Of a DNA stretch of 64,000 nucleotides, positions 39,362 to 57,862 are shown in pieces; positions within the stretch are counted from its first letter, which is position 1, and each line of letters opens with the position of its first letter. Position numbers and translations under genes: made by a program. Under the pieces are notes generated by a model. The model had not been told where the DNA came from, searched no databases, and was given only the letters and a program-made list of their open reading frames with translations. Source of the stretch: Candidatus Moraniibacteriota bacterium (GTDB taxonomy: Bacteria; Patescibacteriota; Minisyncoccia; Moranbacterales; UBA1568); NCBI GenBank assembly GCA_016182385.1, contig JACPGV010000011.1, positions 22,888 to 86,887 on the forward strand. The letters run 5' to 3'.

Positions 39362-40159
39362 TTACTTTTCAAAACTCTGTAAATATTCTGGAAGTTTCAA
39401 AATCCATTTCGCTTGTTCCGGATAAAATAAAAACCTCTCGACATCTTTTGCTGCCTGTTCCAGATTGCTCTTTCTCGCCTGCTGTGTCAAAAATTCTACC
39501 AACATATGACGATTCGTAATATCAAGCTTCTTTTCTTTAAAAAGAGCATAGTTCGGCTCCAAATCCTTTTGACTCAAGAACCATACCAAATCATAAAAAT
39601 CGCGTCCTTTTTGATATGGACGAAAAATAATAGCAACGACTTTTTGAGCGAAAAGTGTTTCCAGAGAATTGACCAACAAAGGAAAACGCTCATTAAAACT
39701 ATCAGAGAATTTCGTTTCCGTGCGCGCTTTCTTGAACGGATTGAAATCAATTTCAAATTTGATAAGCATCTTTTCATTTTCTTGAACATTCAGACCGAAT
39801 TCCCATAAAACATCCTTGAATCTGAAATAAATAGTATGGATATTTTCAGTCGTTTTCGTACGCGCATCGACTTGAAATCCCTGCATATCCAACTTGTTTC
39901 TGATATCAGCCATCAATTCCTCGATATGAAATCCTTCTTTTTTTACCAGATCAAAATACAAATCTTCCGAAAAACGGTTGATTCCATATGCAAAACGAAG
40001 ACACGCACCACCCATGAATGAAATGCTGTCATTGAACTTGCTCAAAGAAAGTGCTTTGAGAATCTGCGTCTGCAAATATTCGAGTAAAATATTGCGATCC
40101 TGCCACGGAATATTTCTCTCTTCTGCGTATTTTTTAAAAAAGTCTTTACTCGGTAGCAT
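39362..40159 (-). CDS. AbiEii/AbiGii-family nucleotidyltransferase toxin (type IV TA toxin, DUF1814)
   Basis: GGACLRFAYGINRFSEDLYFD... matches the nucleotidyltransferase-fold core of AbiEii. Start set at MLPSKDFF (ATG at 40159), 8 nt after the AbiEi stop; the track's 40258 start overlaps AbiEi. Confidence 0.75.
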   Translation of the reverse strand: MLPSKDFFKKYAEERNIPWQDRNILLEYLQTQILKALSLSKFNDSISFMGGACLRFAYGINRFSEDLYFDLVKKEGFHIEELMADIRNKLDMQGFQVDARTKTTENIHTIYFRFKDVLWEFGLNVQENEKMLIKFEIDFNPFKKARTETKFSDSFNERFPLLVNSLETLFAQKVVAIIFRPYQKGRDFYDLVWFLSQKDLEPNYALFKEKKLDITNRHMLVEFLTQQARKSNLEQAAKDVERFLFYPEQAKWILKLPEYLQSFEK

Positions 40160-40769
40160 AATATTTGATAAAACTTTTAGTAAGAAGCGAAACCTTTTTA
40201 TTTTGAAAGGCCTCGGCAAATCCCAGTAATTTTTTCGTATCAAAAACAAAGTCCTCATTGAAACGATATCCTCGGAATTGTTCCGAATCTCCGTTTAAAA
40301 TATTGCGTTTCAAATAAAAAAAATCCACCAGTGCCTTTTCTGGCAATGCCATATTAAAGGAAATTTTCCCGTCCTTTTTCGTTTCATATCCGCCAAATGC
40401 GCTCTTTTTGATTTTCTGATAACTGAAACGTCCCAATTTCGTATCAAACTCTTTCGTTTTCCTTGTCGTCACCGAAGTCACCGTAAACACAGCCTCCGGA
40501 ATAATTCCATAAAAACTCAACGCCTTTTCCATGCTCACATAGGATGGTTGATACATTTTTGTCGCAAACCACACAGGATCCGCATTTTTTGCCTCCTCAG
40601 CGACAACATACATACCTCTTCTCAACATAATAAGATGACCCTTGTTAACCCAATTTTTCAGATTAACAAGCATGGTACTTGTGAACGCACCACCCAGAAC
40701 AAGCCTCAGTTCTTTCGTTTCAAAAAGCGGCAATTCTTCAACTTTTTTTCTAAATTCAAAATAATTCAT
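40146..40769 (-). CDS. AbiEi-family antitoxin/transcriptional regulator (type IV TA antitoxin)
   Basis: N-terminal wHTH-like region and the conserved PSYVSMEKALSFYGIIPE motif of AbiEi antitoxins; 207 aa; immediately upstream of AbiEii. Confidence 0.75.
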   Translation of the reverse strand: MNYFEFRKKVEELPLFETKELRLVLGGAFTSTMLVNLKNWVNKGHLIMLRRGMYVVAEEAKNADPVWFATKMYQPSYVSMEKALSFYGIIPEAVFTVTSVTTRKTKEFDTKLGRFSYQKIKKSAFGGYETKKDGKISFNMALPEKALVDFFYLKRNILNGDSEQFRGYRFNEDFVFDTKKLLGFAEAFQNKKVSLLTKSFIKYYATE

Positions 40770-40912: not shown

Positions 40913-41275
40913 TCAATGTTTTTCTTTGACTGGAGGATCATTTTTCCCCTCACCTCGAATCTCAATAATCCCCCGAATCACCGCCATAACAATAAAGTAG
41001 TACGCATACACAGCAAATTCTTCTGCACGTTCTGGCCTCTTCAAAAGATGAAGGATTGGAGTAAATAGAAGAAACAAAAGCGCTGCTCCCGCCAGTAGTC
41101 TACTTGGAATAGGCCCAATAAGTGACCAGATAAAAATCAAAAAGATGATAATTTCTACCATGGTCCAATCAAAATAGACTCCCAAGACTGCTCCTAGCAC
41201 CGGAAGTACAATATCTACTTTTCTAGAGATAACAAAATGCCGTACCCGTCCTTCAAGTTTCTCTTCTGATCCCAT
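40913..41275 (-). CDS. small 4-TM membrane protein (GtrA-like size and topology)
   Basis: ~120 aa from MGSEEKLEG with four predicted TMs; the stop of the upstream YfhO-like gene lies 5 nt before it. The track's longer form (to 41431) overlaps that gene. Confidence 0.35.
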   Translation of the reverse strand: MGSEEKLEGRVRHFVISRKVDIVLPVLGAVLGVYFDWTMVEIIIFLIFIWSLIGPIPSRLLAGAALLFLLFTPILHLLKRPERAEEFAVYAYYFIVMAVIRGIIEIRGEGKNDPPVKEKH

Positions 41276-41279
41276 ACGA

Positions 41280-43460
41280 TTACCGGTTAGATTTATATTG
41301 CCACCTCTTTCTCCACTCACTGGCAAGCAAAATAGAAAGAACAAAAAGACTGACTCCGGTAATCCACATACCGACATATAAGAGACGTGCCGGCAGGTAG
41401 TACAGGGAAACGTTTCCTCCCTTTCGATCACGATCTAATCTCCAGGCATTGGCATGCTGAATGCTGTTGTCCCGAGTCAATGAGACTTTGTTTCCAGCTA
41501 GATCAACATATTCCGCTCTCCAGAGAGAATCGTAGCGCTCATTCAAGAAAATAGTGGCGTCCTGCTTCATATCCACCACCGGTACCATAATTTCTCGTGG
41601 ATTTTTTCTCTGGTATGCCAGTTCTTCTATATTTTCACGTAGCGCCTGTACAGACTGCGAAAGTCCTTCTATTTTCATCGGAACAAATGGGGCATTGATC
41701 CCTACAAATACGTATGGAAACACCCGCTTCTCTTCCAAAGTATAGAGAGTAAAAAAATCATTCTCTTTTACTTTCTGCAACGCTCCAGTTCTTTCAAGGT
41801 ATTCCTTAGCTCCTTCAAATTCTTCTTGATTCTCCTTACGAGTATCCTTATGAAAAAACACATACTCAACCCCTAGAAGACCGTAGAGATCAGTTATCCA
41901 CTGCGGGTCATGCTGACTCTCAAACTCCGTAGCAAACATCCAATGAGGAATGTAGTAGTCATACAGCTCTACGTATTTTTTACTATACAAACGATACGCG
42001 ATATCGGGACCATTGACCTTCCAAGTAGGAAAATTCACTCTCCCGACGCTCGAACCAGGAGCGTACGGCAACATTGCAATCTTACTGTCCTTTTTACTTG
42101 ACTCAATGACTGAAGCGACATCATAATATGCCTGAGGAACCTCTACGAGAGCACTATACTTAGCCTTGGTATAGTCCTTGGCTTTCTGACCAGAAAGAGC
42201 AAAGCTCAATTTTGTCTGAAGGCCGCCTACGTAAAAAGGAAGCGCCAGAATAATCGTCATGAGAAGAAATGAGAGCATAAGGAAACGAGCATACTTCTTT
42301 CCTTCAAATGATTGAAGGAAAAGTAGAAGAAGTCCTGAAAGAAGAAATGGAGTTATCGTAGCCAGCTTATCCCAGCCACGCAAAGTATTGAATCCTGGCA
42401 GAGTGAATAGAAATTCGTTCATAGACTCAAATGGGAAACGCACTCGTGCCACCAGAGCCATGAAAATAAATGTGAGCATGAAAAAGGCACCGAATATCTT
42501 TTGGTCCCTCGAACTCCTTTTCCGAAAGAATCCATACAACGCCAAGAAAAAAGGAATGAAAGCTATGAAGGCTATCACTCTCTTTGCTTGAGAAAAATCT
42601 GGGTATGGAAAATTCATTGGATAATAGCGTTCCTGCTCACTCGTAGGAAGTAATCGAATCGTATCCGAAAAAGCATTCGACGTCTCCCTTAATCGCTCTG
42701 AAAGATCAACAAATTCTGAAGTATAAACTGCTTGTACGCCACCTCGTAGCTGAGGTATCTGTGGCAACAACCAGTAGGTGTTCATGAGAGCCGCTCCAAA
42801 AACAAGCATCCCTATTTTAAGCAAAGTCTGACGATCAAAAGGGATGGAACGGAAAAGAAACAGTGCGAGCGTAAGAAAAAAGAATAAGATACCAAGAGAC
42901 AGAGCAAAAGCCGGATTTCCAAAACTCGTCGAAGCAAGAAAAGCAACCCCCACAAAACCGTAGCTAAAAATTCTCTGAGATGATTCGAGAGCTTTGATAT
43001 ACATCCCTACCAGAAGAGGAATGAATATGTACAAGACCTGATACGAACTATACCCCCAAGCAGCAGTGAAGACATAGAGTGTATAGAGATTCGTAGCGTA
43101 AAAAAGTGCGGAAAGTGACCGTGTCAGTCCAGATGACCTCGAGAACACCAATGCACAAAATGACAGAAACGAAAAAAATGAACCAAGAAGGAATATTCCG
43201 ACATACCAAGAAAGTTGAGCCGTATCACTAATACCTAGTTGGTCAATAATGTAAAAGACGCCATAAAATAATGAAGCGCTGCCGAAAGCATCGTAATGAA
43301 AACGAACAAAATTTTCGGTCATGTTAATAGCCTGAATAACATCCCCGCCAAGCAAAATATGTCTCGCAGGAAAGATATTCATGAGAGTACATAAAACAAG
43401 AAGAAATACTCCTATTGTTTCCCATCGGTACCGAAGTAGAATGTGTCGTACTCTCTCCAT
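41280..43460 (-). CDS. YfhO-like GT-C-fold membrane glycosyltransferase (paralog 1)
   Basis: 726 aa. ~13 N-terminal TMs with an acidic GGDV motif in the first extracytoplasmic loop, a ~300 aa extracytoplasmic domain and a single C-terminal TM (LLYVGMWITGVSLFVLSILL); this is the topology of YfhO/ArnT-type GT-C enzymes. Confidence 0.5.
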   Translation of the reverse strand: MERVRHILLRYRWETIGVFLLVLCTLMNIFPARHILLGGDVIQAINMTENFVRFHYDAFGSASLFYGVFYIIDQLGISDTAQLSWYVGIFLLGSFFSFLSFCALVFSRSSGLTRSLSALFYATNLYTLYVFTAAWGYSSYQVLYIFIPLLVGMYIKALESSQRIFSYGFVGVAFLASTSFGNPAFALSLGILFFFLTLALFLFRSIPFDRQTLLKIGMLVFGAALMNTYWLLPQIPQLRGGVQAVYTSEFVDLSERLRETSNAFSDTIRLLPTSEQERYYPMNFPYPDFSQAKRVIAFIAFIPFFLALYGFFRKRSSRDQKIFGAFFMLTFIFMALVARVRFPFESMNEFLFTLPGFNTLRGWDKLATITPFLLSGLLLLFLQSFEGKKYARFLMLSFLLMTIILALPFYVGGLQTKLSFALSGQKAKDYTKAKYSALVEVPQAYYDVASVIESSKKDSKIAMLPYAPGSSVGRVNFPTWKVNGPDIAYRLYSKKYVELYDYYIPHWMFATEFESQHDPQWITDLYGLLGVEYVFFHKDTRKENQEEFEGAKEYLERTGALQKVKENDFFTLYTLEEKRVFPYVFVGINAPFVPMKIEGLSQSVQALRENIEELAYQRKNPREIMVPVVDMKQDATIFLNERYDSLWRAEYVDLAGNKVSLTRDNSIQHANAWRLDRDRKGGNVSLYYLPARLLYVGMWITGVSLFVLSILLASEWRKRWQYKSNR

Positions 43461-43468
43461 AACATTAC

Positions 43469-44998
43469 TTATCGTAATTTTGAAACACTGGCATGAACAG
43501 AAAACTCATTGAACCCGAAAAACCCTGATGATTTCTCCTCACCTACGTAAGTTGCTTTGACGTAGACTGTTTTCGCTACTCTGTTCCCTGGTAACGTCAA
43601 CAAAAACCGTACCCGCCCAGATGATTCCTCTACAAATGGAATTTCCTGCCAATGTTCCTTATCCAGAGAATACTCCAATTGAATTTCTGACAAATCATCG
43701 CCGTCCTGTTGTGCATCCAAAGCAAAAAATTCGAAGGGACGCCCTGTTTCAAATCGATACATGAGATACTCCCCTGTCTTCTGACTTCCTGTGATAATCT
43801 TCCTCTCCCTGTCGAAGATGATACTTTGACTCGCCTCGTAGAGATTATCATAATCAACTGGGTCGTGTCTCAATTGGAAAGCATAGAGAAGCTTCTTCCC
43901 TAAATCCTCCAACTTCGCTCCATCAGGAAAGCTATCCGCCCCATTCAACCGTGCCCGTTGGCCAATATGCACAAAAAGATCTCCCTTTTCCTTAAATTCT
44001 TTCGGGTCAACCGTCTTCTCCAATTCGCCTAAAGAAAAGAAGTTTTCTGGGTCTTTATCCTTTGGGCCAACAAAATTAAGAGCATACCAGCCGCCCTGTT
44101 TCAAAGGAAAAGAGAAAGGGAGTAGGAAATTACCAGAAAAAATTCTCATACCATTCAAAGCGTCCAATACGAAGGGTATCCTTTGAAGAGGAGCTGATTC
44201 TTTTTCTTTCGTTACACTATTGTAACGAAAGAGTTCAAAAGCATATTCTTGTCTCCCGCCACCATCTATTTTTCCTGAAAATTCGAGCGACCGAATAAAA
44301 TCACCGTCAGCCTGAAAAAGCCATTCTTTTTTCTGAGAGCTTTTATCTATATTATTTACTGAAAAAAGCTCTCGATGACTAGTCTCCGAGATACCATAAA
44401 AAGTAGGCATGAGACTGACTGCTTCAAAGCGAGTCTGCACTTCAAGCGGCGTGATATCAAAAGATTTTATGAAAACTTCTGGATCATACCATTCCATTTC
44501 TGAAACCTCAGAATTCTTTTTCAATCGAATAATAAGGTCCTGATACCTCCCAGGCGTGGAAAAGACTACTTCACGATATTGACCCTTTTCATCTGGTTCA
44601 AAAGTCCATGAGCTGATGGGCAGTATTTCATTTAGGGAAGATCGAGCCAATACCTCGACCTGTTCTTTATCCTTCGTACTCACATGAATGCCCAGGCGAA
44701 AAAAATCATTCGTTCGAGATTCGAAAAAATTCTCATAGATTTTCTCTGGGATTTTTTTAGTAAGATCGGGTCGAAAAACAAAGGCTGATTTTTCCTTCTT
44801 TGATTCAGGCTTCTTCACTACCTGATCAGGTGCTACAGCCTGATGCCAGAGGTAGGCGGTAAGAAAAATAAAAAGAATGAAGAAATAGCGAAAGTATCTC
44901 CCCAAAAAGACTCCCATTTTCCTAATCACTCCGTGAATTTCTTTCATGTTCTTCATTTTGGATATTTTATCAGTTCTGAGATGATTTGTCATGGTCAC
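43469..44998 (-). CDS. hypothetical membrane-anchored extracytoplasmic protein (509 aa)
   Basis: Single N-terminal TM (YFFILFIFLTAYLW), then a ~450 aa soluble domain; sandwiched between, and overlapping, the two YfhO-like paralogs. Confidence 0.45.
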   Translation of the reverse strand: MTMTNHLRTDKISKMKNMKEIHGVIRKMGVFLGRYFRYFFILFIFLTAYLWHQAVAPDQVVKKPESKKEKSAFVFRPDLTKKIPEKIYENFFESRTNDFFRLGIHVSTKDKEQVEVLARSSLNEILPISSWTFEPDEKGQYREVVFSTPGRYQDLIIRLKKNSEVSEMEWYDPEVFIKSFDITPLEVQTRFEAVSLMPTFYGISETSHRELFSVNNIDKSSQKKEWLFQADGDFIRSLEFSGKIDGGGRQEYAFELFRYNSVTKEKESAPLQRIPFVLDALNGMRIFSGNFLLPFSFPLKQGGWYALNFVGPKDKDPENFFSLGELEKTVDPKEFKEKGDLFVHIGQRARLNGADSFPDGAKLEDLGKKLLYAFQLRHDPVDYDNLYEASQSIIFDRERKIITGSQKTGEYLMYRFETGRPFEFFALDAQQDGDDLSEIQLEYSLDKEHWQEIPFVEESSGRVRFLLTLPGNRVAKTVYVKATYVGEEKSSGFFGFNEFSVHASVSKLR

Positions 44999-47471
44999 TT
45001 TTTTGCCTTTTTTCCTTTTTTAGAGCTCTTTTTACCAAAAGCAGCGAGTACCAAAGGAGACCGAGACCGGAAATAATTATCCCAATATATGAGACCCTCT
45101 GAGGCCAAAATTCTATAATCACTTCGACATCCTGAGTTTCATCTTTATTCTTCAGACAACTCTCAGACTGTTCCTGGCATATAGCATCTATATCAAGAAC
45201 CCAGGCGTTGGCGTAACCATTGACCACAAGTTGTCTATTCTTAGTATCGAGAGGTTCTTGAAACCACGTTTCAGAAAAGCGAGCCTCTACGAGATTATCA
45301 TTTTGAACGGTGTTAAAGAACTTTTTTGAGACAAAATCGATAGAAAATTTCTCGATAAAATCAATCTTCCCTCGATAGTCATCCCATTTTTTGTGAACAA
45401 TACTTTTTTCTTTTCCGTCTCCCAGCTCCGTGACACTCCCCTCGTTTACGAGCCTCACAAGTTCATCGCTATCAGCCTGAAAATATTTATTCTTTTCCAA
45501 TATCTTGTATTCCTTCAGTCGAGAGAGGAGTGACCCACGATCCTGATAAGAACTCTTTTTTTCCGCCAAGTATATGTTCCAATCTTTATGATACTGTTCG
45601 CTCAAAACCAGCACGACGTTCCCCTGTGCACCGTGCAAACGTACTCGATACTGCGTCGGATTGATTTTCTTGTACTCAACACTCGCCCCGGAGAAAATTC
45701 CTCCTCTGTCTATATCAGCATTTATCTCATTATCCTGAAACGAAACTTTCCGCTCAGCATGACGAATAGGCGAGTTATCAAGAAGTATTTGCGTTAATGG
45801 TGCGTCATCAAAGGTACCAATACTTTCGGCCGTATACAACTGTGGTAAAAATTCGTTTCGATCGACATACTGAATAGAGAGAAAACCCTCTTGAAAAGCC
45901 GGTACTGTATTCTTCACATAATAAACAATTTTGTTCATCAAGGAAGCGTCTTCGAATATGAAACCAACTGCATGATTCGAGAGACTCCCGAGAACCTTGT
46001 CATACCCCAAGTTATAGTTTGTGTACAAGAAGTTGTAGATAATTGGCCCAAAGAATCCCCACTGGGTATTGAGGTACGTCAGATCACTGTTGGGATAGAA
46101 CGTCCGGACGTTCATTTTTTGGTAATCAATAAACTCGCGCACCTTGTAATACTCATTTGGGATATGAAAACCACGTTGCTGAATGTTCGTATATTGGTTG
46201 ATCCCGTTGAAATTTTTATAGTACTCCCCGTTCCAGTATGGGTATCCGACATAGATCGTCACAACAAGTATAAGAGAGCTAAAAAAGAACCGTTTTCTTG
46301 GAATTTGTTCGACAAAGAAAAACAAAAGGAGCGCATAAAATACCGAGAGGAAAAAAACTGCTCCCGCTGTCGTTCGCAAAAAGGCTAACAAAGGCACACT
46401 CGCAACAAAGTGCTCATACATCTGCCCAAAAGGCTTATTTGGTCCCGCAGCAAAAAAGAGATAGATGACAAGAAGAAGCCAAACGATGATCTCGTCTCTC
46501 TTATCTACATTGTGTTCGGAGTGAATAATAAGCAGTCGTGCAAAGATGATAAAGACAAAGAAATAGCTCAGGATCAAAATGAGAGCACTCGAATTATAGG
46601 AAAGAACATCCAGATGATTCAGAAAGATAGAATCTTGATGAAGCTTCAATATCTTATCCATGGTATCCACGCCGAAATTCATCATCTTGCCAATATCCTT
46701 GTACCCCGACTTCACTTTTACCCCATAGTCGATGGGATCATAGTTTAAGGTGAAATTTGCTAAAGGCAAAAATAAATAGGCCGAAAGAACAAAGGCGAGT
46801 GAAAATTTTATGAACACCTTTCGCAGCTCTACACCAGTAATTTTTTGAAGACTCCAATTAGCAAAGAAAATAATTGCTGAGATGAGAAAAAGATGAAAAA
46901 GGTACTTCGGGTTCGGTAGATCTAGAGAGCAAAAAGCCAGTATCACATTTAACCAAAGTGCCGTTCCGATGGTGACGTCTTTCTCCTTGACGATCCTAAA
47001 AATGAAATAGATGAACCAAGGAGTAAAAGCGTACACAAATATGTAATGGTAGGCATTGAGAAGAGCTGGGGAGAGGAGATAGAACACGATCGGCACCAAG
47101 AGTTCTAGTCGTTGCGCCTTTGGGGAAAAAAGCTGAGCCAGTTTGTAAATACCAAATCCCGCAATCAACGTTAGAAAAAATAATAAGACTGCAGAAATAA
47201 AAAGGATATTACCCGTAAAAAGCTCGGCCACCCAGTACATGATGTAAAAAACATAGTAGTTCACGGCGAAGTATTGGCCATTTTTCATCTCTATCCACTG
47301 ATAGAGATATTTTTCCAGCCCCTCACTGTTGAATGGTATGAGTACATCGCCCCCGATAGAAAGACGCCCCCAAGTATAAAAAGCTGGTAACAGTGCTAAC
47401 CCAAAAATAACCAGTTCGGGAGAGTACCGAACGAGCAACCTCAAAAATGTCTTCCAAATCTCTCGGTTCAT
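44970..47471 (-). CDS. YfhO-like GT-C-fold membrane glycosyltransferase (paralog 2)
   Basis: 833 aa; same architecture as 41280..43460. The N-termini are alignable (LLVRYSPELVIFGLALLPAFYTWGRLSIGGDV vs ILLRYRWETIGVFLLVLCTLMNIFPARHILLGGDV); C-terminal TM IGIIISGLGLLWYSLLLV. Confidence 0.5.
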   Translation of the reverse strand: MNREIWKTFLRLLVRYSPELVIFGLALLPAFYTWGRLSIGGDVLIPFNSEGLEKYLYQWIEMKNGQYFAVNYYVFYIMYWVAELFTGNILFISAVLLFFLTLIAGFGIYKLAQLFSPKAQRLELLVPIVFYLLSPALLNAYHYIFVYAFTPWFIYFIFRIVKEKDVTIGTALWLNVILAFCSLDLPNPKYLFHLFLISAIIFFANWSLQKITGVELRKVFIKFSLAFVLSAYLFLPLANFTLNYDPIDYGVKVKSGYKDIGKMMNFGVDTMDKILKLHQDSIFLNHLDVLSYNSSALILILSYFFVFIIFARLLIIHSEHNVDKRDEIIVWLLLVIYLFFAAGPNKPFGQMYEHFVASVPLLAFLRTTAGAVFFLSVFYALLLFFFVEQIPRKRFFFSSLILVVTIYVGYPYWNGEYYKNFNGINQYTNIQQRGFHIPNEYYKVREFIDYQKMNVRTFYPNSDLTYLNTQWGFFGPIIYNFLYTNYNLGYDKVLGSLSNHAVGFIFEDASLMNKIVYYVKNTVPAFQEGFLSIQYVDRNEFLPQLYTAESIGTFDDAPLTQILLDNSPIRHAERKVSFQDNEINADIDRGGIFSGASVEYKKINPTQYRVRLHGAQGNVVLVLSEQYHKDWNIYLAEKKSSYQDRGSLLSRLKEYKILEKNKYFQADSDELVRLVNEGSVTELGDGKEKSIVHKKWDDYRGKIDFIEKFSIDFVSKKFFNTVQNDNLVEARFSETWFQEPLDTKNRQLVVNGYANAWVLDIDAICQEQSESCLKNKDETQDVEVIIEFWPQRVSYIGIIISGLGLLWYSLLLVKRALKKEKRQKSDHDKSSQN

Positions 47472-48325
47472 GCTTTTTTATAGAGGGCGTAAAAAGTAGG
47501 ACTCAGGAAGTCTAGTATCTTAAGAGCGACTAAAGAGAAGGAAACAATGAGTGGAATATTCTGGAGTTTCCCCAATTGGTTCCGCACCAACGTCTCTTTG
47601 TTAAGCGTCGGATATTTAAACAACACTTCTTCAAATCCATTCTTGCGCATCAATCGCCTGAGCCGATACGGGTTCGTCAGATTAACGTGCAGGCTCCGAT
47701 CGTGCTGATTCGCCTCACGCACTGCTTTCCAAGTACGAATGCCAAATATAATATGAATGAAATCAAAAACTGGACGGATAGTATTTAGGTAGAATGTATT
47801 ATCTGTGTGCACCACAATAGAGACGTCACTCCCCCACCCTCTAATCTGGGAAAGTACCAATTCAATTTCCGGATCATACATATGCTCTACGACATCTGCT
47901 AAATACACGGCTTTGATGTTCGAAAAGTCATGTTGGTAGTCATTGTTTGTATTGATAAAACGCATTTTTCCCGTATACTGAGGAATCATTTGCAGCTTTT
48001 CCTGGCAGATATCAATAGCACTCTTAGAGTAGTCTATTCCTGTACAATCACAGCCGTATCGAGAAACAAGAAAAAAAGCCAAGTCTCCATTGCCGCATCC
48101 ATAGTCCACAATCCTATCAGTTGGCTGAAGTTTGAGAAGATTTGCCATCTCGGAAAATATCGTAAGATGCCCAGTTTTGAAATACGTCCCATCTTCAGAA
48201 AGTATTGACCGCCCATAGGCATTCTGATAATACGCTTTGCTATAGAGATTGGAATCGACTTGTTCCATAGATTTTCTTTTTATGAATTCAATGCTTCGTA
48301 TTCCTTGGTCACAACCACATCCCAA
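47468..48325 (-). CDS. class I SAM-dependent methyltransferase
   Basis: Motif I VDYGCGNGDLA, acidic motif II and motif III (AVYLADVVEHM) in a Rossmann-fold MTase; 4-nt overlap with the downstream YfhO-like gene. Confidence 0.75.
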   Translation of the reverse strand: MGCGCDQGIRSIEFIKRKSMEQVDSNLYSKAYYQNAYGRSILSEDGTYFKTGHLTIFSEMANLLKLQPTDRIVDYGCGNGDLAFFLVSRYGCDCTGIDYSKSAIDICQEKLQMIPQYTGKMRFINTNNDYQHDFSNIKAVYLADVVEHMYDPEIELVLSQIRGWGSDVSIVVHTDNTFYLNTIRPVFDFIHIIFGIRTWKAVREANQHDRSLHVNLTNPYRLRRLMRKNGFEEVLFKYPTLNKETLVRNQLGKLQNIPLIVSFSLVALKILDFLSPTFYALYKKA

Positions 48326-49425
48326 CTAAACGCGTCTAGTAGTTTTTCTCCAGCTTCGTTTTTGAGTTCGTCACTCCTGAGAAGTTCGAGGGTTTTACTT
48401 GCTATACCGGCATAATCTTGCCACGGTATAATAATCACTTCATTATGCCGATAGAGATGTCGGAATGGTGGGAGGTTATATACCAAAGCTTGTTTCCCAG
48501 AACAGACCACTTCCAAAAGCGCTACTCCAAAACTTTCATCATAGCTAAAAAACCAAAACAATTTTGAGGATTTTATTACATTAAACTTCTCGGTGCCAAC
48601 CTTATACCCCAGGAAAAAGATGTTCTGCTCCAGGTTCATTTTCTGAATGCGTTCTTGATAAGCTTTGACGGTTGGCTCGTCTCCTCCGCCCATGATACCC
48701 AACCGAAAATTTGGCTGTTCCTTCACTACCAAAGCAAGGCTCTCGAGCATATCATAGATTCCCTTTTTCTCATTGATTCTCCCCATGAATAAGGCGTCGA
48801 AAGTATATCGCTCATCAAGCACTGCCTCCCGAATTCTCTGACCCTCCACCGCACATCCGGTCAGTACAATCTGATTTCGTTTAAATCTATGTTCCAGGAG
48901 ATAAGTTTCTAGATCTGGCGTAATGACATAAATTTTATCTGCCCTTCGGAGCAAGTGTAGACTCATATGAAAAAATACCCACGCCAAGAAACGTATACCT
49001 TTATTACCAGGTCCTTGGAGTGGCACTGTATTGTCGAACACTGTAATCCACTTCGTTTCCGGATGAAAAAGCCGGTAAAAGAAAGGAAAGAGAGTAAACT
49101 CGAGAACGGAGGTTAATGTGTAGAGCACATCATAGTTACCAGTCTTCACTTTGCCATACTGTCGAAATACCAAAAGGTTTCTACGCAGCGCGTACCAAAT
49201 GTACCGAAGCTTTGTGAAGCGTTCCTCTGGAATATTTCTAAGCTCATCCATCTCCGCATTAAAGGCATAGACATCTTTTCCTTTAAGGTTAATCCGCTCG
49301 ATGAAAACGCCCGTCTGAATATATATTTCATACCCAAGTTCTTCCCATTTTTTCATCTTGATAAGCCAGATAATCTGAATCCCCTCACGATTCAGATTGA
49401 CGATATTGACAAGCATTTTTTTCAT
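48280..49425 (-). CDS. glycosyltransferase family 4 (GT-B, glycosyl transferase group 1)
   Basis: C-terminal retaining GT-B signature E-x7-E region (SYDESFGVALLEVVCSGKQALV); 381 aa. Confidence 0.75.
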   Translation of the reverse strand: MKKMLVNIVNLNREGIQIIWLIKMKKWEELGYEIYIQTGVFIERINLKGKDVYAFNAEMDELRNIPEERFTKLRYIWYALRRNLLVFRQYGKVKTGNYDVLYTLTSVLEFTLFPFFYRLFHPETKWITVFDNTVPLQGPGNKGIRFLAWVFFHMSLHLLRRADKIYVITPDLETYLLEHRFKRNQIVLTGCAVEGQRIREAVLDERYTFDALFMGRINEKKGIYDMLESLALVVKEQPNFRLGIMGGGDEPTVKAYQERIQKMNLEQNIFFLGYKVGTEKFNVIKSSKLFWFFSYDESFGVALLEVVCSGKQALVYNLPPFRHLYRHNEVIIIPWQDYAGIASKTLELLRSDELKNEAGEKLLDAFSWDVVVTKEYEALNS

Positions 49426-49439
49426 ATTCTCTCGACTAT

Positions 49440-50075
49440 TTATTTGCTATATATCGCCACAATCTGACCACCAAACAATATTCTTCTCGTTAAGAAATTC
49501 ATCTTGAAATGAAAGATGTACGGAGTAAACATTTCCTTCTTAGAAAGACCTACTCTTCTCAAGAAAAAATCCATCGTGTAGGGAGTAAACAGCATACGAT
49601 GTGTCGGATCTACTTCGCCGGTAAAGTTCTTGCTGCCCAAAAAACGGGTTAAGCTATTGGCATTAGGTGTGGTCACAATAAGCAAGCCACCCTTTTTCAG
49701 ATGTTTTTGAAGTATTTGTTCCAGTGGAACAAAATTCGTTAAATGCTCTACAACATCAAACATCGTGATGACATCGAAAGACTCTTCCAAAGGAAATATT
49801 CCTTGATTCAAATCCATTTGGAAAAATCGATCTTTGATATGGGGAAACTTTTCCTGACACTGCTTTACGGCATACTCAGAATAATCACAGCCATAGCACG
49901 TGCTGGTTCGCTCAATATTCCCTATAAACTCACCAGTGGCACAGCCAACGTCCAATACTTTCTTCTCTTTCAACGAGACTCCCAGAGTAGCTAAAAAAGA
50001 AAGATAAGCCGGGAACACTTCACCGCTTTTGGTCGTCTCTCTAGTAAAATATTCTTGGCTATACATAGTGTTCAT
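49440..50075 (-). CDS. class I SAM-dependent methyltransferase
   Basis: Motif I VLDVGCATGEF and post-I/II motifs (DVITMFDVVEHL); 211 aa. Confidence 0.75.
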   Translation of the reverse strand: MNTMYSQEYFTRETTKSGEVFPAYLSFLATLGVSLKEKKVLDVGCATGEFIGNIERTSTCYGCDYSEYAVKQCQEKFPHIKDRFFQMDLNQGIFPLEESFDVITMFDVVEHLTNFVPLEQILQKHLKKGGLLIVTTPNANSLTRFLGSKNFTGEVDPTHRMLFTPYTMDFFLRRVGLSKKEMFTPYIFHFKMNFLTRRILFGGQIVAIYSK

Positions 50076-51159
50076 CTTTCAATGATTCAAAGACTTCTAT
50101 CATCTTTTGTGCAGATGATTCCCAGGTAAACTGACTCGCAAACTCCAAGTTCGTTTCAATCAACTGTTGACGTTTCTCTGACGAAAGCGCGACCAATCGC
50201 TCCATAACTTGAGTTATTTCTGGAACGTTCTTAGCATCAAACATCCATTCTCTATGGGGATTCACTTCTGGAAGAGAGCTATTATCCGCCGACAATACCG
50301 GGCAGTGCTGCGCCATAGACTCAATAACCGGCAAACCGAAACCCTCATAGAAAGATGGGTAAATAAAGAATGCCGCATGTCGATAGAGATTCTTCAGCTG
50401 TTCTTCTGAAACAAAGCCCAGCAATTTCACCCGTTCGGATATGTGGAGCGCCTCAGCCAGTGACCGAAGCTCTTTCTGATGACCCTCACTCATCAAGCCA
50501 GCAATGACATATGTATAGTTTCTAAGTTGATCACTCCCTGCCATGGCACGAAGCACGCTAAAGATATTTTTTCGACTCGGATGGGTAGTCACAGAAAAAA
50601 AATAAGGCTCTTGTACAATTGGTTGTTCGTTTTCTGGTTCCGTCCAGAAAATATCATTAATCCCTGGATAGATAACACTTATTTTCTTTTCAGAAGTTCC
50701 AAAAAAGTGAACCACATCACGCTTCGTGCTTTCAGAAATACACACGATATGATCCGCTTTCTTCAGTGACCGCCCAATAGAATACGTATGGTAAACCTTG
50801 TAAAGAGCGGAGTAAAGTTTCGGAAAATGAAGGAATGCAAGGTCATAGACTGTCATGGTGTATTTCACGCCTCTCTTTTTCCCAACAGGCAAAAGTACTG
50901 AGGCTCCATGGACCACATCAACTTTATTTCGCCGGATGAGCGAGTGAATAAGAAAAGTGTCGAAAAGCACCGCCCCCCACAAAGTATCGGGCAATTTGAA
51001 CTGCTCTGTCTTACCAATCGTCTTATTGAGTTGTGTCTGAAAAAAAAGATAGTCATTCTTTTTGTCAAGCTCAAGAATTTTAGAGAACAACAAATAAACA
51101 TAGTAGGGCACCCCACTGTTTTTGTTCTGATAAATCCTCGAATTAATGCCTATTCTCAT
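50059..51159 (-). CDS. glycosyltransferase family 4 (GT-B)
   Basis: PSFYEGFGLPVIESMAQHCPVLSADNSSLPEV, the classic GT4 EX7E motif; 366 aa. Confidence 0.8.
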   Translation of the reverse strand: MRIGINSRIYQNKNSGVPYYVYLLFSKILELDKKNDYLFFQTQLNKTIGKTEQFKLPDTLWGAVLFDTFLIHSLIRRNKVDVVHGASVLLPVGKKRGVKYTMTVYDLAFLHFPKLYSALYKVYHTYSIGRSLKKADHIVCISESTKRDVVHFFGTSEKKISVIYPGINDIFWTEPENEQPIVQEPYFFSVTTHPSRKNIFSVLRAMAGSDQLRNYTYVIAGLMSEGHQKELRSLAEALHISERVKLLGFVSEEQLKNLYRHAAFFIYPSFYEGFGLPVIESMAQHCPVLSADNSSLPEVNPHREWMFDAKNVPEITQVMERLVALSSEKRQQLIETNLEFASQFTWESSAQKMIEVFESLKDEHYV

Positions 51160-51182
51160 CTACGTATGCCCTTTCGTTGTAA

Positions 51183-51923
51183 TTAGCCTCTTTTCTGCGC
51201 CTTCAGATAGAATCTTGTCGGTACCAGCGATCCCTTCAGGCCTTTCAATATCCGCTCTCGCATTTTCTGACTGGTCGTATAAGAAGTGCGGAAAATATGT
51301 TTGCAGATGTAAAAGTAAAGCATGTCTAGATCCCAATACAGGTTACCAATCTCTTGATTTTCCGTCACTCCAAAGCCAGCACCAGAGAGAATACTCTCGA
51401 GCTTCTTTTTAGAGTAATGCCGATGCCCGAGCATCCATGCTGGATCAATCGGATTAAGAATATGACTACGCATCGTACTCACAATGAGCACTCCATCTGG
51501 TTTAAGAAGCTTGTGAAAAAACTGCAGCGCTACCCCCTCCTTGCCTTTTGGAACATGCTCAATGACATCAAGGAAGATCACCGTATCGAATGTTCCTCCG
51601 TGCTTAGCAATAAATCCTTCATTCCCACTCATAAGTTGGCACTGTTCAAAGGAAAAATGTGGGAAATTCCTCCGAGCTACTGAGAGGGCATCATCATTTT
51701 CATCGATACCCGTCAGGTCAGTCTGGATATTCTTCTTGGTGATAGTCTTTTCAAGTGGTCCCGTCCAACAACCCGCATCAAGTACTTTCTTCCCTTCAAT
51801 ATGTGGACGATAGTAGTCAACTACAAATTCATGTTGATAATTATCGACAATATCCTGATCATTGAGCTCTACATATTCCATGCTACCATTATACGAAAGC
51901 ATCCTCTTGAGAAAATTTGCCAT
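51183..51923 (-). CDS. class I SAM-dependent methyltransferase
   Basis: Motif I VLDAGCWTGPL and VIFLDVIEHV; 246 aa. Confidence 0.75.
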   Translation of the reverse strand: MANFLKRMLSYNGSMEYVELNDQDIVDNYQHEFVVDYYRPHIEGKKVLDAGCWTGPLEKTITKKNIQTDLTGIDENDDALSVARRNFPHFSFEQCQLMSGNEGFIAKHGGTFDTVIFLDVIEHVPKGKEGVALQFFHKLLKPDGVLIVSTMRSHILNPIDPAWMLGHRHYSKKKLESILSGAGFGVTENQEIGNLYWDLDMLYFYICKHIFRTSYTTSQKMRERILKGLKGSLVPTRFYLKAQKRG

Positions 51924-51934
51924 AATATTATTAC

Positions 51935-52915
51935 TTATTTATTTTTAGAAAGTCTCTCTACGTCAGCGTCTACCATCATTTTAACTAGCTCTTCAAATCC
52001 TACCTCCGACTCCCAGCCCAACACCTTTTTAGCTTTGTCGTTCTTCCCATGAAGTGCATAGAGCTCGACTGGCCGATTGAACTGGGGATCGATTTTCACG
52101 TACCGCTCCCAATCATTGATACCGACATGTTCGAATGCTACATTCAAAAAATCACGAATTGAGTGTGTTACCCCGGTCGAAAGAATATAGTTATCTGGCT
52201 TTTCCTGTTGAAGCATAAGCCACATAGCCTTCACGTAATCACCAGCAAATCCCCAATCGCGCTTACTATCCAAATTACCAAGCCTAATCTCTTCAGCTAA
52301 ACCAAGCTTAATACGAGCCACTCCATCACTAATCTTTCGTGTCACAAAGCGTAGCCCTCGAATTGGTGATTCGTGATTAAAAAGAATACCATTGGCACAA
52401 AACATACCGTAGCTCTCACGGAAATTGACCGTCATCCAGTAGGCATAGAGTTTTGAGATAGCATAGGGACTCTTAGGATGAAAAGGAGTTTCTTCGGTTT
52501 GCAGTCCTTCCGTATGACTGTCTCCAAACATTTCACTGGTCGAAGCCTGGTAAAATTTCGTCTTTGGTGAGAAATCTTTAATTGCTGTTAGGAGATAAAG
52601 CACTCCCAATGAATTGACCTCTGTAGTGAGCTTTGCCTGTTCCCAGGATGCCCCTACAAATGACTGGGCAGCCAAATTGTATACTTCATCAGGCTGGTGT
52701 TCGGCGATGATCTTTCGAAGCGACTCCTCATCGGCCATGTCACCGTTCACAAAAGTGATCTTCTCTCGCACATTGAGGAAGTCAAGATTTTCAAAATTAA
52801 CCGCTGTAAGATCACGAGCTAACCCAAGCACTTCATAGCCCTTTGCAAGCAAAAACTTCGACAGATAGGCTCCATCTTGCCCTGCTACTCCAGTAATGAG
52901 TGCCTTTTTTTTCAT
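51935..52915 (-). CDS. gmd: GDP-mannose 4,6-dehydratase (copy 2)
   Basis: ALITGVAGQDGAYLSKFLLAKGYEVLG (GxxGxxG Rossmann), catalytic triad region SPYAISKLYA and NHESPIRG, all characteristic of Gmd. Start trimmed to MKKKALITG (ATG at 52915). Confidence 0.85.
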   Translation of the reverse strand: MKKKALITGVAGQDGAYLSKFLLAKGYEVLGLARDLTAVNFENLDFLNVREKITFVNGDMADEESLRKIIAEHQPDEVYNLAAQSFVGASWEQAKLTTEVNSLGVLYLLTAIKDFSPKTKFYQASTSEMFGDSHTEGLQTEETPFHPKSPYAISKLYAYWMTVNFRESYGMFCANGILFNHESPIRGLRFVTRKISDGVARIKLGLAEEIRLGNLDSKRDWGFAGDYVKAMWLMLQQEKPDNYILSTGVTHSIRDFLNVAFEHVGINDWERYVKIDPQFNRPVELYALHGKNDKAKKVLGWESEVGFEELVKMMVDADVERLSKNK

Positions 52916-52916
52916 A

Positions 52917-54056
52917 CTACCTTGTATACAACGCCAGTGTCTTACGAGCTGTTTCGAAAGGGGTACGTGAACGCGCTTTCGTCTCAACATTTTTCTCAAT
53001 TTCTACTATTTTTTCTGGATGCTCAGCGGCAAACTTAAATGCTTCATGGAAGCGGTCGTTATCGGTCAAAATCCCCGTCTTGCCATCCTCAATATCCTCG
53101 AGAAAATGCCCTATCTTCGAACAAATCACCGCCTTCCCATAGCTGACTGAGTGAAACAGCGGACCGCTCGATCCCATAGAAACCACCGCTGGAATCACGA
53201 CTGCATATGCCTTCTCATACAAGTCATCCTGTTCTTCTTGTTCGATAAAACCTCTGACGATCACTTTTTCTTCGAGATGATTATCCTTGATAATCTGCAT
53301 AATCTCGTCGTAGGCTTTTTCCTGGCCCTTGATGACTCCGCCGGCCAAAATAAACTTGTAGTCACTCCCTGGATTTTCTTCGATATACCGTCGGAAACCT
53401 TCCAGTGCGAAACCAAGCCCCTTCCGTCGTACCATGTACCCAAAGTAAAAAAAGTATTTCTCTTTTCGTGAGTTATTGATTTCTCTCTGGGGAATCGCGA
53501 TCGGAATCACATTCACCTTTTTTGGATCAACACCATAGTCCGTCACCAGAATCTCTTTGGTCAGATGTGTATGCACAGTAAGCGCATGAGAAAAGAGTGA
53601 GATCATTTTATAAACGTAGTGAAAAAAGAACGTCAACATAAATGGTCGAAGGAGCGGTGAATCCTGATGAAAAAGCTTCATAAAGGCATCATCTACCTGT
53701 CGTCTGAAAACCGCGGCGTGTACAGTTGTCACCACTCGGATCCCCTGCAACCGGAGAGCTACTACCAACAAAGGAAAGAAGCTGGCCGTCAAAATACCAC
53801 CATACATGTTGAGCTCATGTTGTAAATGAACAACATCCGGCTTATCCTTTTTGATCTCACTCAAAATTTCTGGAATATACCGGAGAGATTTTGACCAAAC
53901 CATTTTTATAGTCCCACAATTCTGTATTTCTACATTCTTCGGATTCTTATCAGCGTATACCAAAAGCTCGACATTCTGATGCTCGTTTAATCCCCTCGTA
54001 ATGTATTGAGAATAGTGCCCCGATGGCAACATTCCAGAAATGAAAACTATCTTCAT
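52917..54056 (-). CDS. glycosyltransferase, GT-B fold (GT4-like, divergent)
   Basis: 379 aa; N-terminal MKIVFISGMLPSGHY (GT-B N-domain) and a C-terminal nucleotide-sugar-binding domain with a degenerate EX7E region. Confidence 0.6.
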   Translation of the reverse strand: MKIVFISGMLPSGHYSQYITRGLNEHQNVELLVYADKNPKNVEIQNCGTIKMVWSKSLRYIPEILSEIKKDKPDVVHLQHELNMYGGILTASFFPLLVVALRLQGIRVVTTVHAAVFRRQVDDAFMKLFHQDSPLLRPFMLTFFFHYVYKMISLFSHALTVHTHLTKEILVTDYGVDPKKVNVIPIAIPQREINNSRKEKYFFYFGYMVRRKGLGFALEGFRRYIEENPGSDYKFILAGGVIKGQEKAYDEIMQIIKDNHLEEKVIVRGFIEQEEQDDLYEKAYAVVIPAVVSMGSSGPLFHSVSYGKAVICSKIGHFLEDIEDGKTGILTDNDRFHEAFKFAAEHPEKIVEIEKNVETKARSRTPFETARKTLALYTR

Positions 54057-54060
54057 ATAA

Positions 54061-56249: not shown

Positions 56250-56276
56250 ATTTTTGAGCGCTCCTTAATTACAAAA

Positions 56277-57320
56277 TTAGTAATGGTAATCCGTTTCGCC
56301 CTTGAGATCATACTTCATCATCAACTTCACAAGTTCCTCAAAACCCATTTTCGGTCTCCAGCTAAGTTTCCTCTGGGCCTTGGAATTATCTCCGATCAAG
56401 AGATCTACTTCTGCCGGTCGAAAATACATTGGGTCAATTTCCACCAACACTTTGCCCGTAGTTTTGTCCTTACCCTTCTCATTAATCCCTTCACCCTCCC
56501 ATACCAAATCATAACCTGCCTCTTTGAAGGCAAGCTCACAAAACTCCCGTACTGTATGGGTCTCACCAGTTGAAATCACAAAATCTTCTGGCTTCTCCTG
56601 CTGAAGCATCAGCCACATCGCCTCTACATAGTCTTTAGCATAACCCCAATCACGCTTGGCATCGAGATTCCCCAGATAAATTCTCTCTTGTGTTCCATTT
56701 TTAATACCAGCAACACCAGTGGTAATTTTTCTCGTTACAAAAATTTTTCCTCGACGTGGCGACTCATGATTAAATAAAATACCATTACAAGCAAAAAGAT
56801 TATATGCCTCACGATAATTCACCACAATCCAATAAGCATAAAGCTTGGCGACCCCATAGGGAGAGCGTGGGTAAAATGGAGTAGTCTCCTTCTGGGGTGT
56901 TTCCTGGACCTTGCCGAACAATTCCGAAGTCGAAGCCTGATAGAACTTCGTTTTGATGCCAGTCTCTTTGATAGCATCTAGGAAACGAAGCGTGCCCAGG
57001 GCATCAACTTCAGCAGTATATTCTGGAACCTGAAAAGAAATATGCACATGTGACTGCGCGGCAAGATTATATATTTCATCAGGCTTGATCATCTCAAGCA
57101 AACGGTTCAAGTTGCTTGAATCCGTCAAATCACCGTAGTGGAGATGAATCCTCGACTTTTCCGAATGTGACCCTGAAAACATATGGTCAATCCGTTCGGT
57201 ATTGAAGATCGAAGCCGCTCGACGTAAACCGTGCACTTCATAACCTTTTTCCAAAAGAAGTTCTGCCAAATAAGACCCGTCCTGACCTGTAATTCCAGTA
57301 ATAAGTGCTTTTTTTATCAT
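56277..57320 (-). CDS. gmd: GDP-mannose 4,6-dehydratase (copy 1, canonical)
   Basis: [31 protein letters not shown] ... [12 protein letters not shown] ... NHESPRRG ... C-terminal tail; full-length 347 aa, closely alignable with canonical bacterial Gmd. Confidence 0.9.
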
Positions 57321-57826: not shown

Positions 57827-57862
57827 AACACCCTAAACAAAGCTTCTTTTTCCACAATAAAC

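Follow-up and report, generated by a model that had tools for sequence, protein, structure and literature searches.

A four-gene cassette of two paralogous GT-C-type membrane proteins and two partner proteins in Moranbacteria and related CPR bacteria, with a candidate role in extracytoplasmic glycan assembly

The 64-kb stretch of Candidatus Moraniibacteriota DNA analysed here, referred to below as the window, carries four adjoining genes that, from sequence comparison, form a cassette kept in Moranbacteria and related CPR bacteria. The genes, with the evidence used to delimit each of them in brackets, are as follows.

44970..47471, minus strand: A, predicted GT-C-fold glycosyltransferase of 833 aa, the cassette's variable member (ORF, model, homologs)
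43469..44998, minus strand: B, membrane-anchored extracytoplasmic all-beta protein of 509 aa counted from GTG (homologs, model)
41280..43460, minus strand: C, GT-C paralog of A, 726 aa, the cassette's conserved GT-C (ORF, hhalign)
40913..41275, minus strand: D, conserved membrane protein of 120 aa with 3-4 TM helices (hydropathy, related loci)

The open reading frames of A, B and C, all three on the minus strand, lie where a first-pass annotation of this DNA had placed them; its description left out D, which starts 4 nt past the stop codon of C. The same annotation had B overlapping both of its neighbors, which is incorrect on the C side, where 8 nt separate the two genes, and depends on the start codon on the A side, where the overlap amounts to 29 nt from the GTG or 23 nt from the ATG at M3, and to none from M15 or M18. 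The M3 start is the one picked by the gene caller in a 92%-identical relative (locus L032), and more distant B homologs begin at M15 or M18 in the homolog alignment; judging by these sequences, the ATG at 44992, 44956 or 44947 may be the true start of B. Past D lies a toxin–antitoxin pair.

40146-40769, minus strand: AbiEi antitoxin (Pfam scan)
39362-40258, minus strand: AbiEii toxin (Pfam scan)

This AbiE pair, by which a sigma-70 consensus is matched at 12 of 12 positions (40831-40803), is a boundary of the cassette and lies outside the system; together, its genes (39362..40769) fill the slot where related genomes have a GtrB/ArnC-like GT2. On the opposite side, the start codon of A and the stop codon of the methyltransferase gene before it share nucleotides (ATGA); that gene belongs to a sugar operon co-directional with the cassette (47468..61868, minus strand, delimited by Pfam scans).

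47468-48325, 49440-50075 and 51183-51923, minus strand: SAM methyltransferases (Pfam)
48280-49425, 50059-51159 and 52917-54056, minus strand: GT4 glycosyltransferases (Pfam)
51935-52999, 54061-55002, 56277-57320 and 60912-61868, minus strand: GDP-mannose-4,6-dehydratase/epimerase-like proteins (Pfam)
54999-56249, minus strand: sugar C-methyltransferase (Pfam)
57317-57826, minus strand: 169-aa ORF with no assigned family (ORF)
57863-59692, minus strand: B12/radical-SAM protein (Pfam)
59932-60909, minus strand: GT2 (Pfam)

The two large membrane proteins had been proposed to stem from duplication and divergence, and profile comparison bears this out. By BLASTP, the similarity of A and C is marginal (E=6e-4, 21% identity over ~346 colinear residues). 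When 64 A-family sequences and 62 C-family sequences are each turned into a profile, hhalign matches the two profiles end to end over ~650 columns, with a probability of 99.9-100% and E=1.3e-35 in local mode and 6e-55 in global mode. Since this alignment takes in the soluble domain, the significant similarity exceeds mere TM composition, and at the level of sequence profiles A and C are true distant paralogs. The GGDV motif reported for both is present in the first outside loop of each (SIGGDVLIP in A, LLGGDVIQA in C), and the common topology holds as well: hydropathy and the model give A 11 TM helices, a ~380-aa beta-rich outside domain, one C-terminal TM helix and a basic tail, and the hydropathy pattern of C matches that of A. 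C has 95 homologs, each annotated as hypothetical, and its pairwise identity across 18 complete cassettes ranges from 31 to 61%.

By the predicted structure of A and by homology for C, the two proteins are members of the GT-C superfamily (GT-C_A), with a multi-pass TM core of GT-C fold, a likeness that the first-pass annotation had suggested and that both fold searches and a sequence bridge uphold. The predicted structure of A is confident (pLDDT 88.6), and a Foldseek search with it returned AftD as the best match (E=1e-8), followed by DPY19, PglB, STT3, ALG9 and ArnT; the fold of C follows from its homology to A. The bridge is P0204, the A-position protein of locus L026, which matches the TM portion of both profiles, that of A over residues 9-514 (54.9 bits) and that of C over residues 9-565 (95.9 bits), and which over residues 45-515 passes the Pfam GT-C_AftD model (40.8 bits vs a cutoff of 26). 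It is the better of two A-position proteins, out of 23, that pass this model. Neither A nor C itself matches GT-C_AftD (PF11847) at E<=0.1 in the Pfam scan; among 62 C-family members the best match is that of a single protein at E=0.24, and none of the 62 has a significant Pfam match of any kind. Single-sequence and profile searches of Pfam, NCBIfam and PDB sequences with A, B and C likewise gave nothing significant, and a weak Wzy_C match of A (E=0.071) was dismissed as noise. YfhO proteins are laid out as A and C are, with an N-terminal GT-C block, a large outside domain and a C-terminal TM helix. No match to the YfhO model (PF09586) was found for A, C, 10 distant relatives or 23 A-position proteins, nor at E<=1 among the 62 C-family members; the separation of A and C from YfhO is one by sequence models, the PDB holding no YfhO structure. 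A PMT match was similarly missing from the Pfam scans of A, C and the relatives scanned.

What the two families have in common beyond the fold is a set of conserved residues. In the sequence alignments, the first extracytoplasmic loop of both contains an acidic residue that is conserved, D42 of A (at 97% among A-family sequences) and D40 of C (invariant in the C family), each in the GGD motif and 8-10 residues past TM1. K39 and D41 of AftD, which lie in the equivalent region, are essential (bioRxiv 10.1101/2019.12.22.885152). Profile alignment adds, for A and C respectively, N187-P188/N182-P183, R366/R361 in the TM9-TM10 loop, P411..G415/P408..G412, W631/W647 and N755..W757/N671..W673. The residues kept by both paralogs are likely to be active-site residues.

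Protein B, which sits between the two GT-C proteins, has one N-terminal TM helix, and its remainder is mostly beta, arranged in beta-sandwich domains. Its model, built on an 8-sequence alignment, is poor overall (pLDDT 57), with domains 80-190 and 360-509 reaching ~70-90; Foldseek returned CBM/jelly-roll matches with TM-scores below 0.2, which at such a pLDDT are to be read as generic jelly-rolls. Eleven of 30 B orthologs weakly match F5_F8_type_C (PF00754; best E 7.4e-4), under the Pfam cut-off of 28.2 bits where a score is shown (12.8 bits), and the window's own B has no such match. The B profile further matches the CBM32 structure 2w1q (E=2.6e-4, over 32 residues), and the last domain of B thus appears weakly F5/8-type-C/CBM32-like. 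The earlier suggestions for this protein included an acceptor, an assembly factor and a secreted glycoprotein substrate, with a peptidase or other unrelated enzyme as the contrary outcome. No unrelated enzyme function emerged for this anchored all-beta protein, and its weak F5/8-type-C/CBM32 signals favor an assembly or acceptor-binding factor; a separate acceptor-binding protein in some GT-C systems has been a matter of published speculation (PMC8035078). The glycoprotein option is disfavored in its N-glycoprotein form, and an S-layer-homology protein was rejected as well: N-x-S/T sequons (and Cys) are missing from the window's B, the 30 orthologs share no conserved sequon column, and B has neither an SLH match nor a Ser/Thr-rich tract (S 7.7%, T 3.7%).

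D follows C in practically all related loci and has no Pfam match; none of the four cassette proteins falls into a curated family. Its identification as GtrA or GacJ was rejected on this ground and on an hhalign probability of 0.06% against the E. coli GtrA homolog YfdG. More broadly, A-like, B, C and D genes are same-strand and syntenic in nearly all of the 26 species-level genomes with enough flank, and most related loci continue 3′ of D with a GT2, a UDP-glucose dehydrogenase (UGDH), a GT4 and a flippase-like gene. The GT2 comes directly after D in most of the loci that extend past D, including L032, where it follows immediately. It aligns full-length with ArnC (5e-51), the PgfS model (1.9e-43) and E. 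coli GtrB/YfdH (8e-37, 29% identity, both C-terminal TM helices included), which by sequence makes it a predicted GtrB/ArnC-type polyprenyl-phosphate sugar synthase; the flippase-like protein passes TIGR00374. PMT_2 genes are also present in related loci. Within the 64-kb window we found no polyprenyl-phosphate sugar synthase, UGDH, GT4 of the downstream block or flippase-like gene, so that the argument about the sugar donor rests on the related genomes.

The upstream operon behaves differently from this downstream block in that it travels with A. The loci L001, L002/L003, L032 and P0002 have this operon 5′ of their A homologs. Whenever the identity to A is 46-92%, the homolog is behind the same GT4/methyltransferase/GDP-mannose-dehydratase operon, even in L002/L003, where its neighbors are not B, C and D. 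In loci with different upstream sugar genes, the A proteins are only 25-33% identical. Across the 18 complete cassettes, mean pairwise identity is 31% for A, 30% for B, 42% for C and 48% for D, and the distance matrices correlate at 0.54-0.62 among the last three (C-D 0.62, B-C 0.58, B-D 0.54) but at 0.17 for A-C and 0.24 for A-D. By these sequence distances, B, C and D co-diverge, and A is exchanged in company with the sugar operon 5′ of it, which is variable.

The cell-envelope glycans of CPR bacteria (Patescibacteria) are little characterised, and most such organisms cannot be grown alone. For Moranbacteria and related bacteria, the cassette supplies a concrete and conserved set of candidate genes for assembling glycans outside the membrane. 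We infer that A and C are probably active extracytoplasmic GT-Cs acting on polyprenyl-phosphate donors and that all four proteins jointly build or decorate a surface glycopolymer or lipoglycan. Under this model, the catalytic face of A and C would lie outside the membrane, and both would take sugars from polyprenyl-phosphate-linked donors. C, B and D would be the conserved core, which in most related genomes would also contain the GtrB/ArnC-type synthase, UDP-glucose 6-dehydrogenase, GT4 and flippase-like protein, and which would make or extend a common acceptor. A would be the exchangeable enzyme, adding a strain-variable unit supplied by the upstream operon, here perhaps C- and O-methylated 6-deoxyhexoses. 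It counts against the model that the clusters show no exporter of the Wzx or ABC kind and no priming phosphoglycosyltransferase by which that unit would reach A. B may bind the acceptor glycan on behalf of A, C or both through its CBM-like beta-sandwich domains on the membrane anchor, and D may be a small membrane protein that translocates the donor or serves as a subunit of the complex. The split between a conserved B-C-D core and an A that is exchanged along with its operon recalls the logic of serotype switching. A bolder version, rather improbable in our judgment, has B, C, D and the swappable A as a Patescibacteria-specific envelope machine that polymerises a novel major surface lipoglycan or wall glycopolymer, with B as the acceptor-holding or processivity subunit shared by the two GT-Cs. 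In that version, the anchor may contain glucuronic acid, given the conserved UGDH, GT4 and flippase-like genes, and the exchange of A and its operon would diversify the surface in a serotype-like way, with possible consequences for how these episymbiotic bacteria attach to hosts.

How A and C work together leaves room for other arrangements. They could form an obligate heterodimer, in the manner of EmbA-EmbB or Pmt1-Pmt2, with B and D as stoichiometric subunits, which would be compatible with the model above. The paralogs are adjacent and keep a fixed order in ~26 genomes with junctions of 4-8 nt or overlapping ones, and across the wider family the C-terminal outside domain of A-type proteins shows much stronger conservation (~350 bits) than the catalytic TM domain (25-55 bits), as would fit a conserved docking surface. 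Against this stand the independent divergence of A (r = 0.17 with C, 0.24 with D) and its separation from B, C and D in L002/L003, and we regard the arrangement as doubtful. Alternatively, A could act en bloc, as transferases, ligases or polymerases of the OST, WaaL or Wzy types do, and move a complete oligosaccharide made by the upstream operon from polyprenyl diphosphate to its acceptor in place of single sugars. Its translational coupling to and co-variation with that operon, the oligosaccharyltransferases among its best fold matches and the lack of Wzy and WaaL from the clusters in Pfam scans are all in line with such a role; the clusters of the window and the related loci, however, lack a Wzx flippase and a priming phosphoglycosyltransferase, and AftD, the closest family by both sequence and fold, uses monosaccharide polyprenyl-phosphate donors. 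We consider this reading unlikely.

Another idea is that A, C or both transfer sugars to proteins, as OST, PMT or Pgf/YfhO-type enzymes do, and modify an S-layer, pili or B itself in place of a polysaccharide or lipoglycan. A precedent is the Pgf system of S. mutans (PgfS, PgfM1, PgfE, PgfM2), whose single operon likewise encodes a GtrB-like GT2 along with two membrane proteins of GT-C type, and in which PgfM1 and PgfM2, both YfhO-domain proteins, work with the GT2 to O-glycosylate streptococcal surface proteins in Ser/Thr-rich regions (PMC5856776). The closeness of the associated GT2 to PgfS and the PMT_2 genes of related loci speak for this possibility. Against it, A, C and their scanned relatives match neither YfhO nor PMT models, the cassette encodes no Ser/Thr-rich substrate, B offers neither sequons nor a conserved sequon column, the only Pfam bridge goes to AftD, a polysaccharide-acting enzyme, and the CBM-like partner and the outside domain rich in beta structure point to a glycan as the acceptor; taken together, these points make a protein substrate quite improbable. 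That one or both paralogs are non-catalytic GT-C-fold scaffolds or transporters of the PIG-U/GAB1 kind is very hard to reconcile with the invariant EL1 Asp, the TM9-TM10-loop Arg and ~20 further conserved residues that the two families share.

Returning to the glycan-assembly model, AftD, the mycobacterial alpha-(1->3)-arabinofuranosyltransferase (PF11847, PDB 6W98), is the sole Pfam family reached from A and C through intermediate homologs and resembles them in its GT-C fold with an 11-TM core like that of A, its essential Asp ~10 residues past TM1, and its large beta-rich outside domain followed by one or more C-terminal TM helices. It is, however, a protein of ~1,400 aa with three in-chain CBMs, five C-terminal TM helices and an ACP-binding helical bundle (bioRxiv 10.1101/2019.12.22.885152), whereas A and C span 726-833 aa, end in one TM helix and lack both CBMs and bundle, the CBM-like B being encoded separately. 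Nor do decaprenyl-phospho-arabinose pathway genes lie near A and C: Pfam scans of the window's larger ORFs and the Pfam matches listed for genes of six related loci include no DprE1/E2-like or PRPP:polyprenyl-phosphate transferase genes. EmbA-EmbB and Pmt1-Pmt2 share with the cassette adjacent or partnered GT-C paralogs, and the Emb proteins, like AftD, hold the glycan acceptor via CBMs (for AftD, bioRxiv 10.1101/2019.12.22.885152); here, by contrast, A evolves independently of C and the CBM-like module is a separate polypeptide. A GT-C system with a putative carbohydrate-binding module on its own chain would be a natural example of the arrangement speculated upon earlier (PMC8035078).

The first-pass annotation had judged that the gene arrangement matches no described system. 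At the level of protein families this stands, as Pfam, NCBIfam and PDB give no match and all homologs are annotated as hypothetical; it does not stand for the gene set, since the related loci follow the known multi-component transmembrane glycosylation logic of GT2, flippase and GT-C (PMC8035078, PMC11127046). They pair a GtrB/ArnC-type GT2, a flippase-like protein and GT-C enzymes in the manner of the GtrA/GtrB/GtrC and CsbB-GtcA-YfhO systems, which glycosylate at the outer face from polyprenyl-phosphate sugars (PMC8035078, PMC11127046). The cassette differs from those systems in its two paralogous GT-Cs of a family without a Pfam or NCBIfam model, in the anchored CBM-like B between them, in a D that is not GtrA-like, and in the absence of the GT2 and flippase genes from this window. 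Among multi-component transmembrane glycosylation systems, the cassette would be a variant that is new at the family level. Our literature searches on Patescibacteria with GT-C, or CPR with arabinofuranosyltransferase, found no papers. The cassette defines at least two GT-C families without a Pfam or NCBIfam model, which could found new CAZy families. The A-type superfamily comprises ~5,550 clusters at 50% identity. In L006/L007, loci in which B has lost its middle domain, the A-like proteins are long; a fused B domain was considered for these proteins and rejected, their extra 300 aa being an N-terminal cytoplasmic GT2 domain.

The four genes of the cassette, A to D, lie in a metagenome-assembled genome of Candidatus Moranbacteria (CPR/Patescibacteria), with an AbiE pair beyond D:

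44970-47471, minus strand: A, 833 aa
43469-44998, minus strand: B, 509 aa counted from the GTG start
41280-43460, minus strand: C, 726 aa
40913-41275, minus strand: D, 120 aa, three or four TM helices
40146-40769, minus strand: AbiEi antitoxin
39362-40258, minus strand: AbiEii toxin

The ATG of A overlaps the stop codon of the methyltransferase gene upstream (ATGA), and D starts 4 nt past the C stop codon. According to the first-pass annotation, B overlaps both of its neighbors. The B-C overlap does not exist, as the two genes are separated by 8 nt, and the extent of the A/B overlap depends on the start codon chosen for B: 29 nt for the GTG, 23 nt for the ATG at M3, and zero for M15 or M18, the positions at which distant B homologs start. 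With the overlaps corrected and gene D added, the layout and paralogy originally described for A, B and C stand, and that interpretation taken as a whole was largely right. C is 100% identical to NCBI HYV45_03890. That entry (P0076) is 700 aa long, 26 residues short of our 726-aa ORF; ORF residue 27 is a Met, and starting there drops the TM1 that precedes the GGD loop (43380-43460). The 726-aa start is backed by homologs of 720-729 aa and by conserved N-terminal columns (M1, G17, N28, F30, P31).

Pairwise BLASTP between A and C is marginal (E=6e-4, 21% identity), and it is the comparison of profiles, built from 64 aligned sequences of the A family and 62 of the C family, that is decisive: hhalign returns an end-to-end match over ~650 columns at 99.9-100% probability, with E=1.3e-35 in local and E=6e-55 in global mode. 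On these sequence grounds A and C are paralogs, as had been proposed. Some 20 positions are identical between the families and at least 85% conserved in each, among them (A/C) D42/D40 in GGD, N187-P188/N182-P183, L365-R366/L360-R361, P411..G415/P408..G412, P438..Y441/P442..Y445, W631/W647 and N755..W757/N671..W673. Since the similarity extends over the soluble domain, TM composition is ruled out as its cause.

AlphaFold2 models A with confidence (pLDDT 88.6, pTM 0.88): 11 TM helices precede an outside domain of ~380 aa that is rich in beta structure, and the chain closes with a single C-terminal TM helix and a basic tail; the first outside loop carries GGD42 and two short helices. For A, the suggested GT-C-like character is borne out by Foldseek against the PDB, in which the top match is AftD (E=1e-8), followed by DPY19, PglB, STT3, ALG9 and ArnT, with PMT lower and AftA, ALG12/9, AglB, AftB and PimE also among the lower-ranked matches. 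In AftD, K39 and D41, directly past TM1, are essential (bioRxiv 10.1101/2019.12.22.885152). In A and C the Asp of the GGD motif sits at a comparable place. Active-site-type residues are kept in both paralogs.

Neither A nor C, as single sequences or profiles, matches Pfam, NCBIfam or PDB sequences, and the 62 members of the C family yield no significant Pfam match. A profile search over 1.84 billion representatives recovers ~5,550 clusters at E<=1e-3, of which 814 remain at E<=1e-30, the named relatives being Patescibacteria hypothetical proteins. These relatives score ~350 bits over the C-terminal outside domain and only 25-55 bits over the catalytic TM domain. In GT-C enzymes the TM core is usually the more conserved part, a pattern that this A-type superfamily (e.g., P0202-P0306) reverses; its outside domain, which no Pfam model matched, carries the motifs EFKKINPTKYR, IDFISKNFxGTIQNDNL, NGYANSW and EFWPQR. 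Two of the 23 A-position proteins pass GT-C_AftD, and none matches YfhO. One of them, P0204 from locus L026, scores 40.8 bits against the Pfam GT-C_AftD cutoff of 26, and over that region it also matches the A (54.9 bits) and C (95.9 bits) profiles in their TM parts; judged by these scores, P0204 is a sequence bridge from A/C to GT-C_AftD.

AftD is the closest by fold and the sole Pfam bridge. A and C themselves fail its HMM and have neither its CBMs nor its five C-terminal TM helices nor its ACP module, and no arabinose-donor genes lie near them. YfhO has a layout similar to that of A and C, which nevertheless do not match its HMM. In the Pgf system, too, a GtrB-like GT2 occurs alongside a pair of GT-C proteins, which there belong to the YfhO type and target Ser/Thr-rich proteins (PMC5856776). 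By analogy with the EmbA-EmbB and Pmt1-Pmt2 pairs, A and C may form a complex.

B has a single TM helix at its N-terminus and, after it, beta-sandwich domains. Its model is poor (overall pLDDT 57, with residues 80-190 and 360-509 at ~70-90) and in Foldseek retrieves only generic jelly-roll/CBM matches. The first search found 7 B homologs, and synteny-based addition raised the set to 30; F5/8 type C is weakly matched by 11 of the 30 (best E=7.4e-4), and the B profile aligns with a short stretch of the CBM32 structure 2w1q (E=2.6e-4). The middle domain is absent from B in L006 and L007 (328-344 aa) and hence dispensable. The idea of a sequon-bearing or S-layer-homology protein falls away, as B has no N-x-S/T sequon, conserved sequon column, Cys or SLH domain. 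B is best read as an anchored, putatively carbohydrate-binding accessory protein, its CBM assignment being weak.

Scanning species-representative genomes with the C profile yielded 26 loci in Moranbacteria, Parcubacteria and other Patescibacteria, and HMM mapping places A-like, B, C and D in this order on one strand in essentially all loci whose flanks are long enough. In most loci four more genes follow: a GT2 of 313 aa that carries two TM helices at its C-terminus and aligns full-length with ArnC (5e-51), PgfS (1.9e-43) and E. coli GtrB/YfdH (8e-37); a TuaD-like UDP-glucose 6-dehydrogenase; a GT4; and a flippase-like protein (TIGR00374). PMT_2 genes are often nearby on the opposite strand. 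All of these genes are missing from the window, where D is followed by the AbiEi/AbiEii pair, with its own promoter (40831-40803, 12/12 sigma-70 consensus, extended TG), and then queA. In L032, a 92%-identical relative, the GT2 directly follows D; synteny is therefore broken in the window genome. The AbiE pair takes the exact place of the GT2 of L032 and most related genomes, and seems to mark a breakpoint of an insertion or rearrangement immediately past D.

Among the 18 complete cassettes compared, pairwise identity averages 31% for A, 30% for B, 42% for C and 48% for D. The identity matrices correlate among B, C and D (C-D 0.62, B-C 0.58, B-D 0.54) and less so with A (A-B 0.37, A-D 0.24, A-C 0.17). 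Every A homolog of 46-92% identity lies downstream of one and the same operon type, including those that do not have B, C and D next to them. This operon encodes GDP-mannose dehydratase/epimerases, a sugar C-methyltransferase and a B12-radical-SAM protein, and in it GT4 genes alternate with methyltransferase genes; in loci with different upstream sugar genes, A is only 25-33% identical. Together, the correlations and this linkage indicate that the conserved core consists of B, C and D, and that A is swapped along with the variable sugar operon. In the window (47468-61868) GT4 genes alternate with SAM-methyltransferase genes, and the operon further encodes four GDP-mannose-dehydratase/epimerase-like proteins, one sugar C-methyltransferase and a B12/radical-SAM protein similar to HpnJ. 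This content suggests, as the product, a 6-deoxyhexose glycan rich in C- and O-methyl groups. Neither a priming transferase nor Wzx, Wzy or an ABC exporter was seen.

What the data establish is the GT-C fold, the paralogy of A and C, the active-site-type residues that both keep, the four-gene synteny, the association with a GtrB/ArnC-type GT2 in related genomes, and an evolution of A that is decoupled from the rest. As for function, we propose that C would use a polyprenyl-phosphate sugar to extend or decorate a common acceptor, which may be a wall polymer, a lipoglycan or a protein, and that A would add a strain-variable methylated deoxyhexose unit. B could hold the glycan acceptor, and D, which is not GtrA-like, might act as a translocator or complex subunit.

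In Moranbacteria loci L006 (5398-8892) and L007 (5532-8918) the A-position GT-C carries a fused N-terminal cytoplasmic GT2 (1128-1164 aa). The A-position gene call in L004 (6133-8331, 732 aa) seems to be cut short; alignment with the A profile begins at residue 25 of a longer 916-aa ORF (5581-8331). The full cassette is also present on several contigs titled "uncultured Bdellovibrionales/Pseudobdellovibrionaceae" (L007, L012, L013, L019, L020, L023, L025-L027), whose C proteins share 35-54% identity with the Moranbacteria one; these labels on third-party MAGs look doubtful. Elsewhere in the window, a 644-aa ORF without Pfam match (22394-24328, minus strand) adjoins an FtsA-like gene. In L002/L003 (18665-22439), ~6 kb downstream of a lone A homolog, another trio encodes a 139-aa protein, a 742-751-aa protein matching neither Pfam nor the A or C profile, and a DUF6311 membrane protein, and may represent an analogous yet unrelated large-membrane-protein module.
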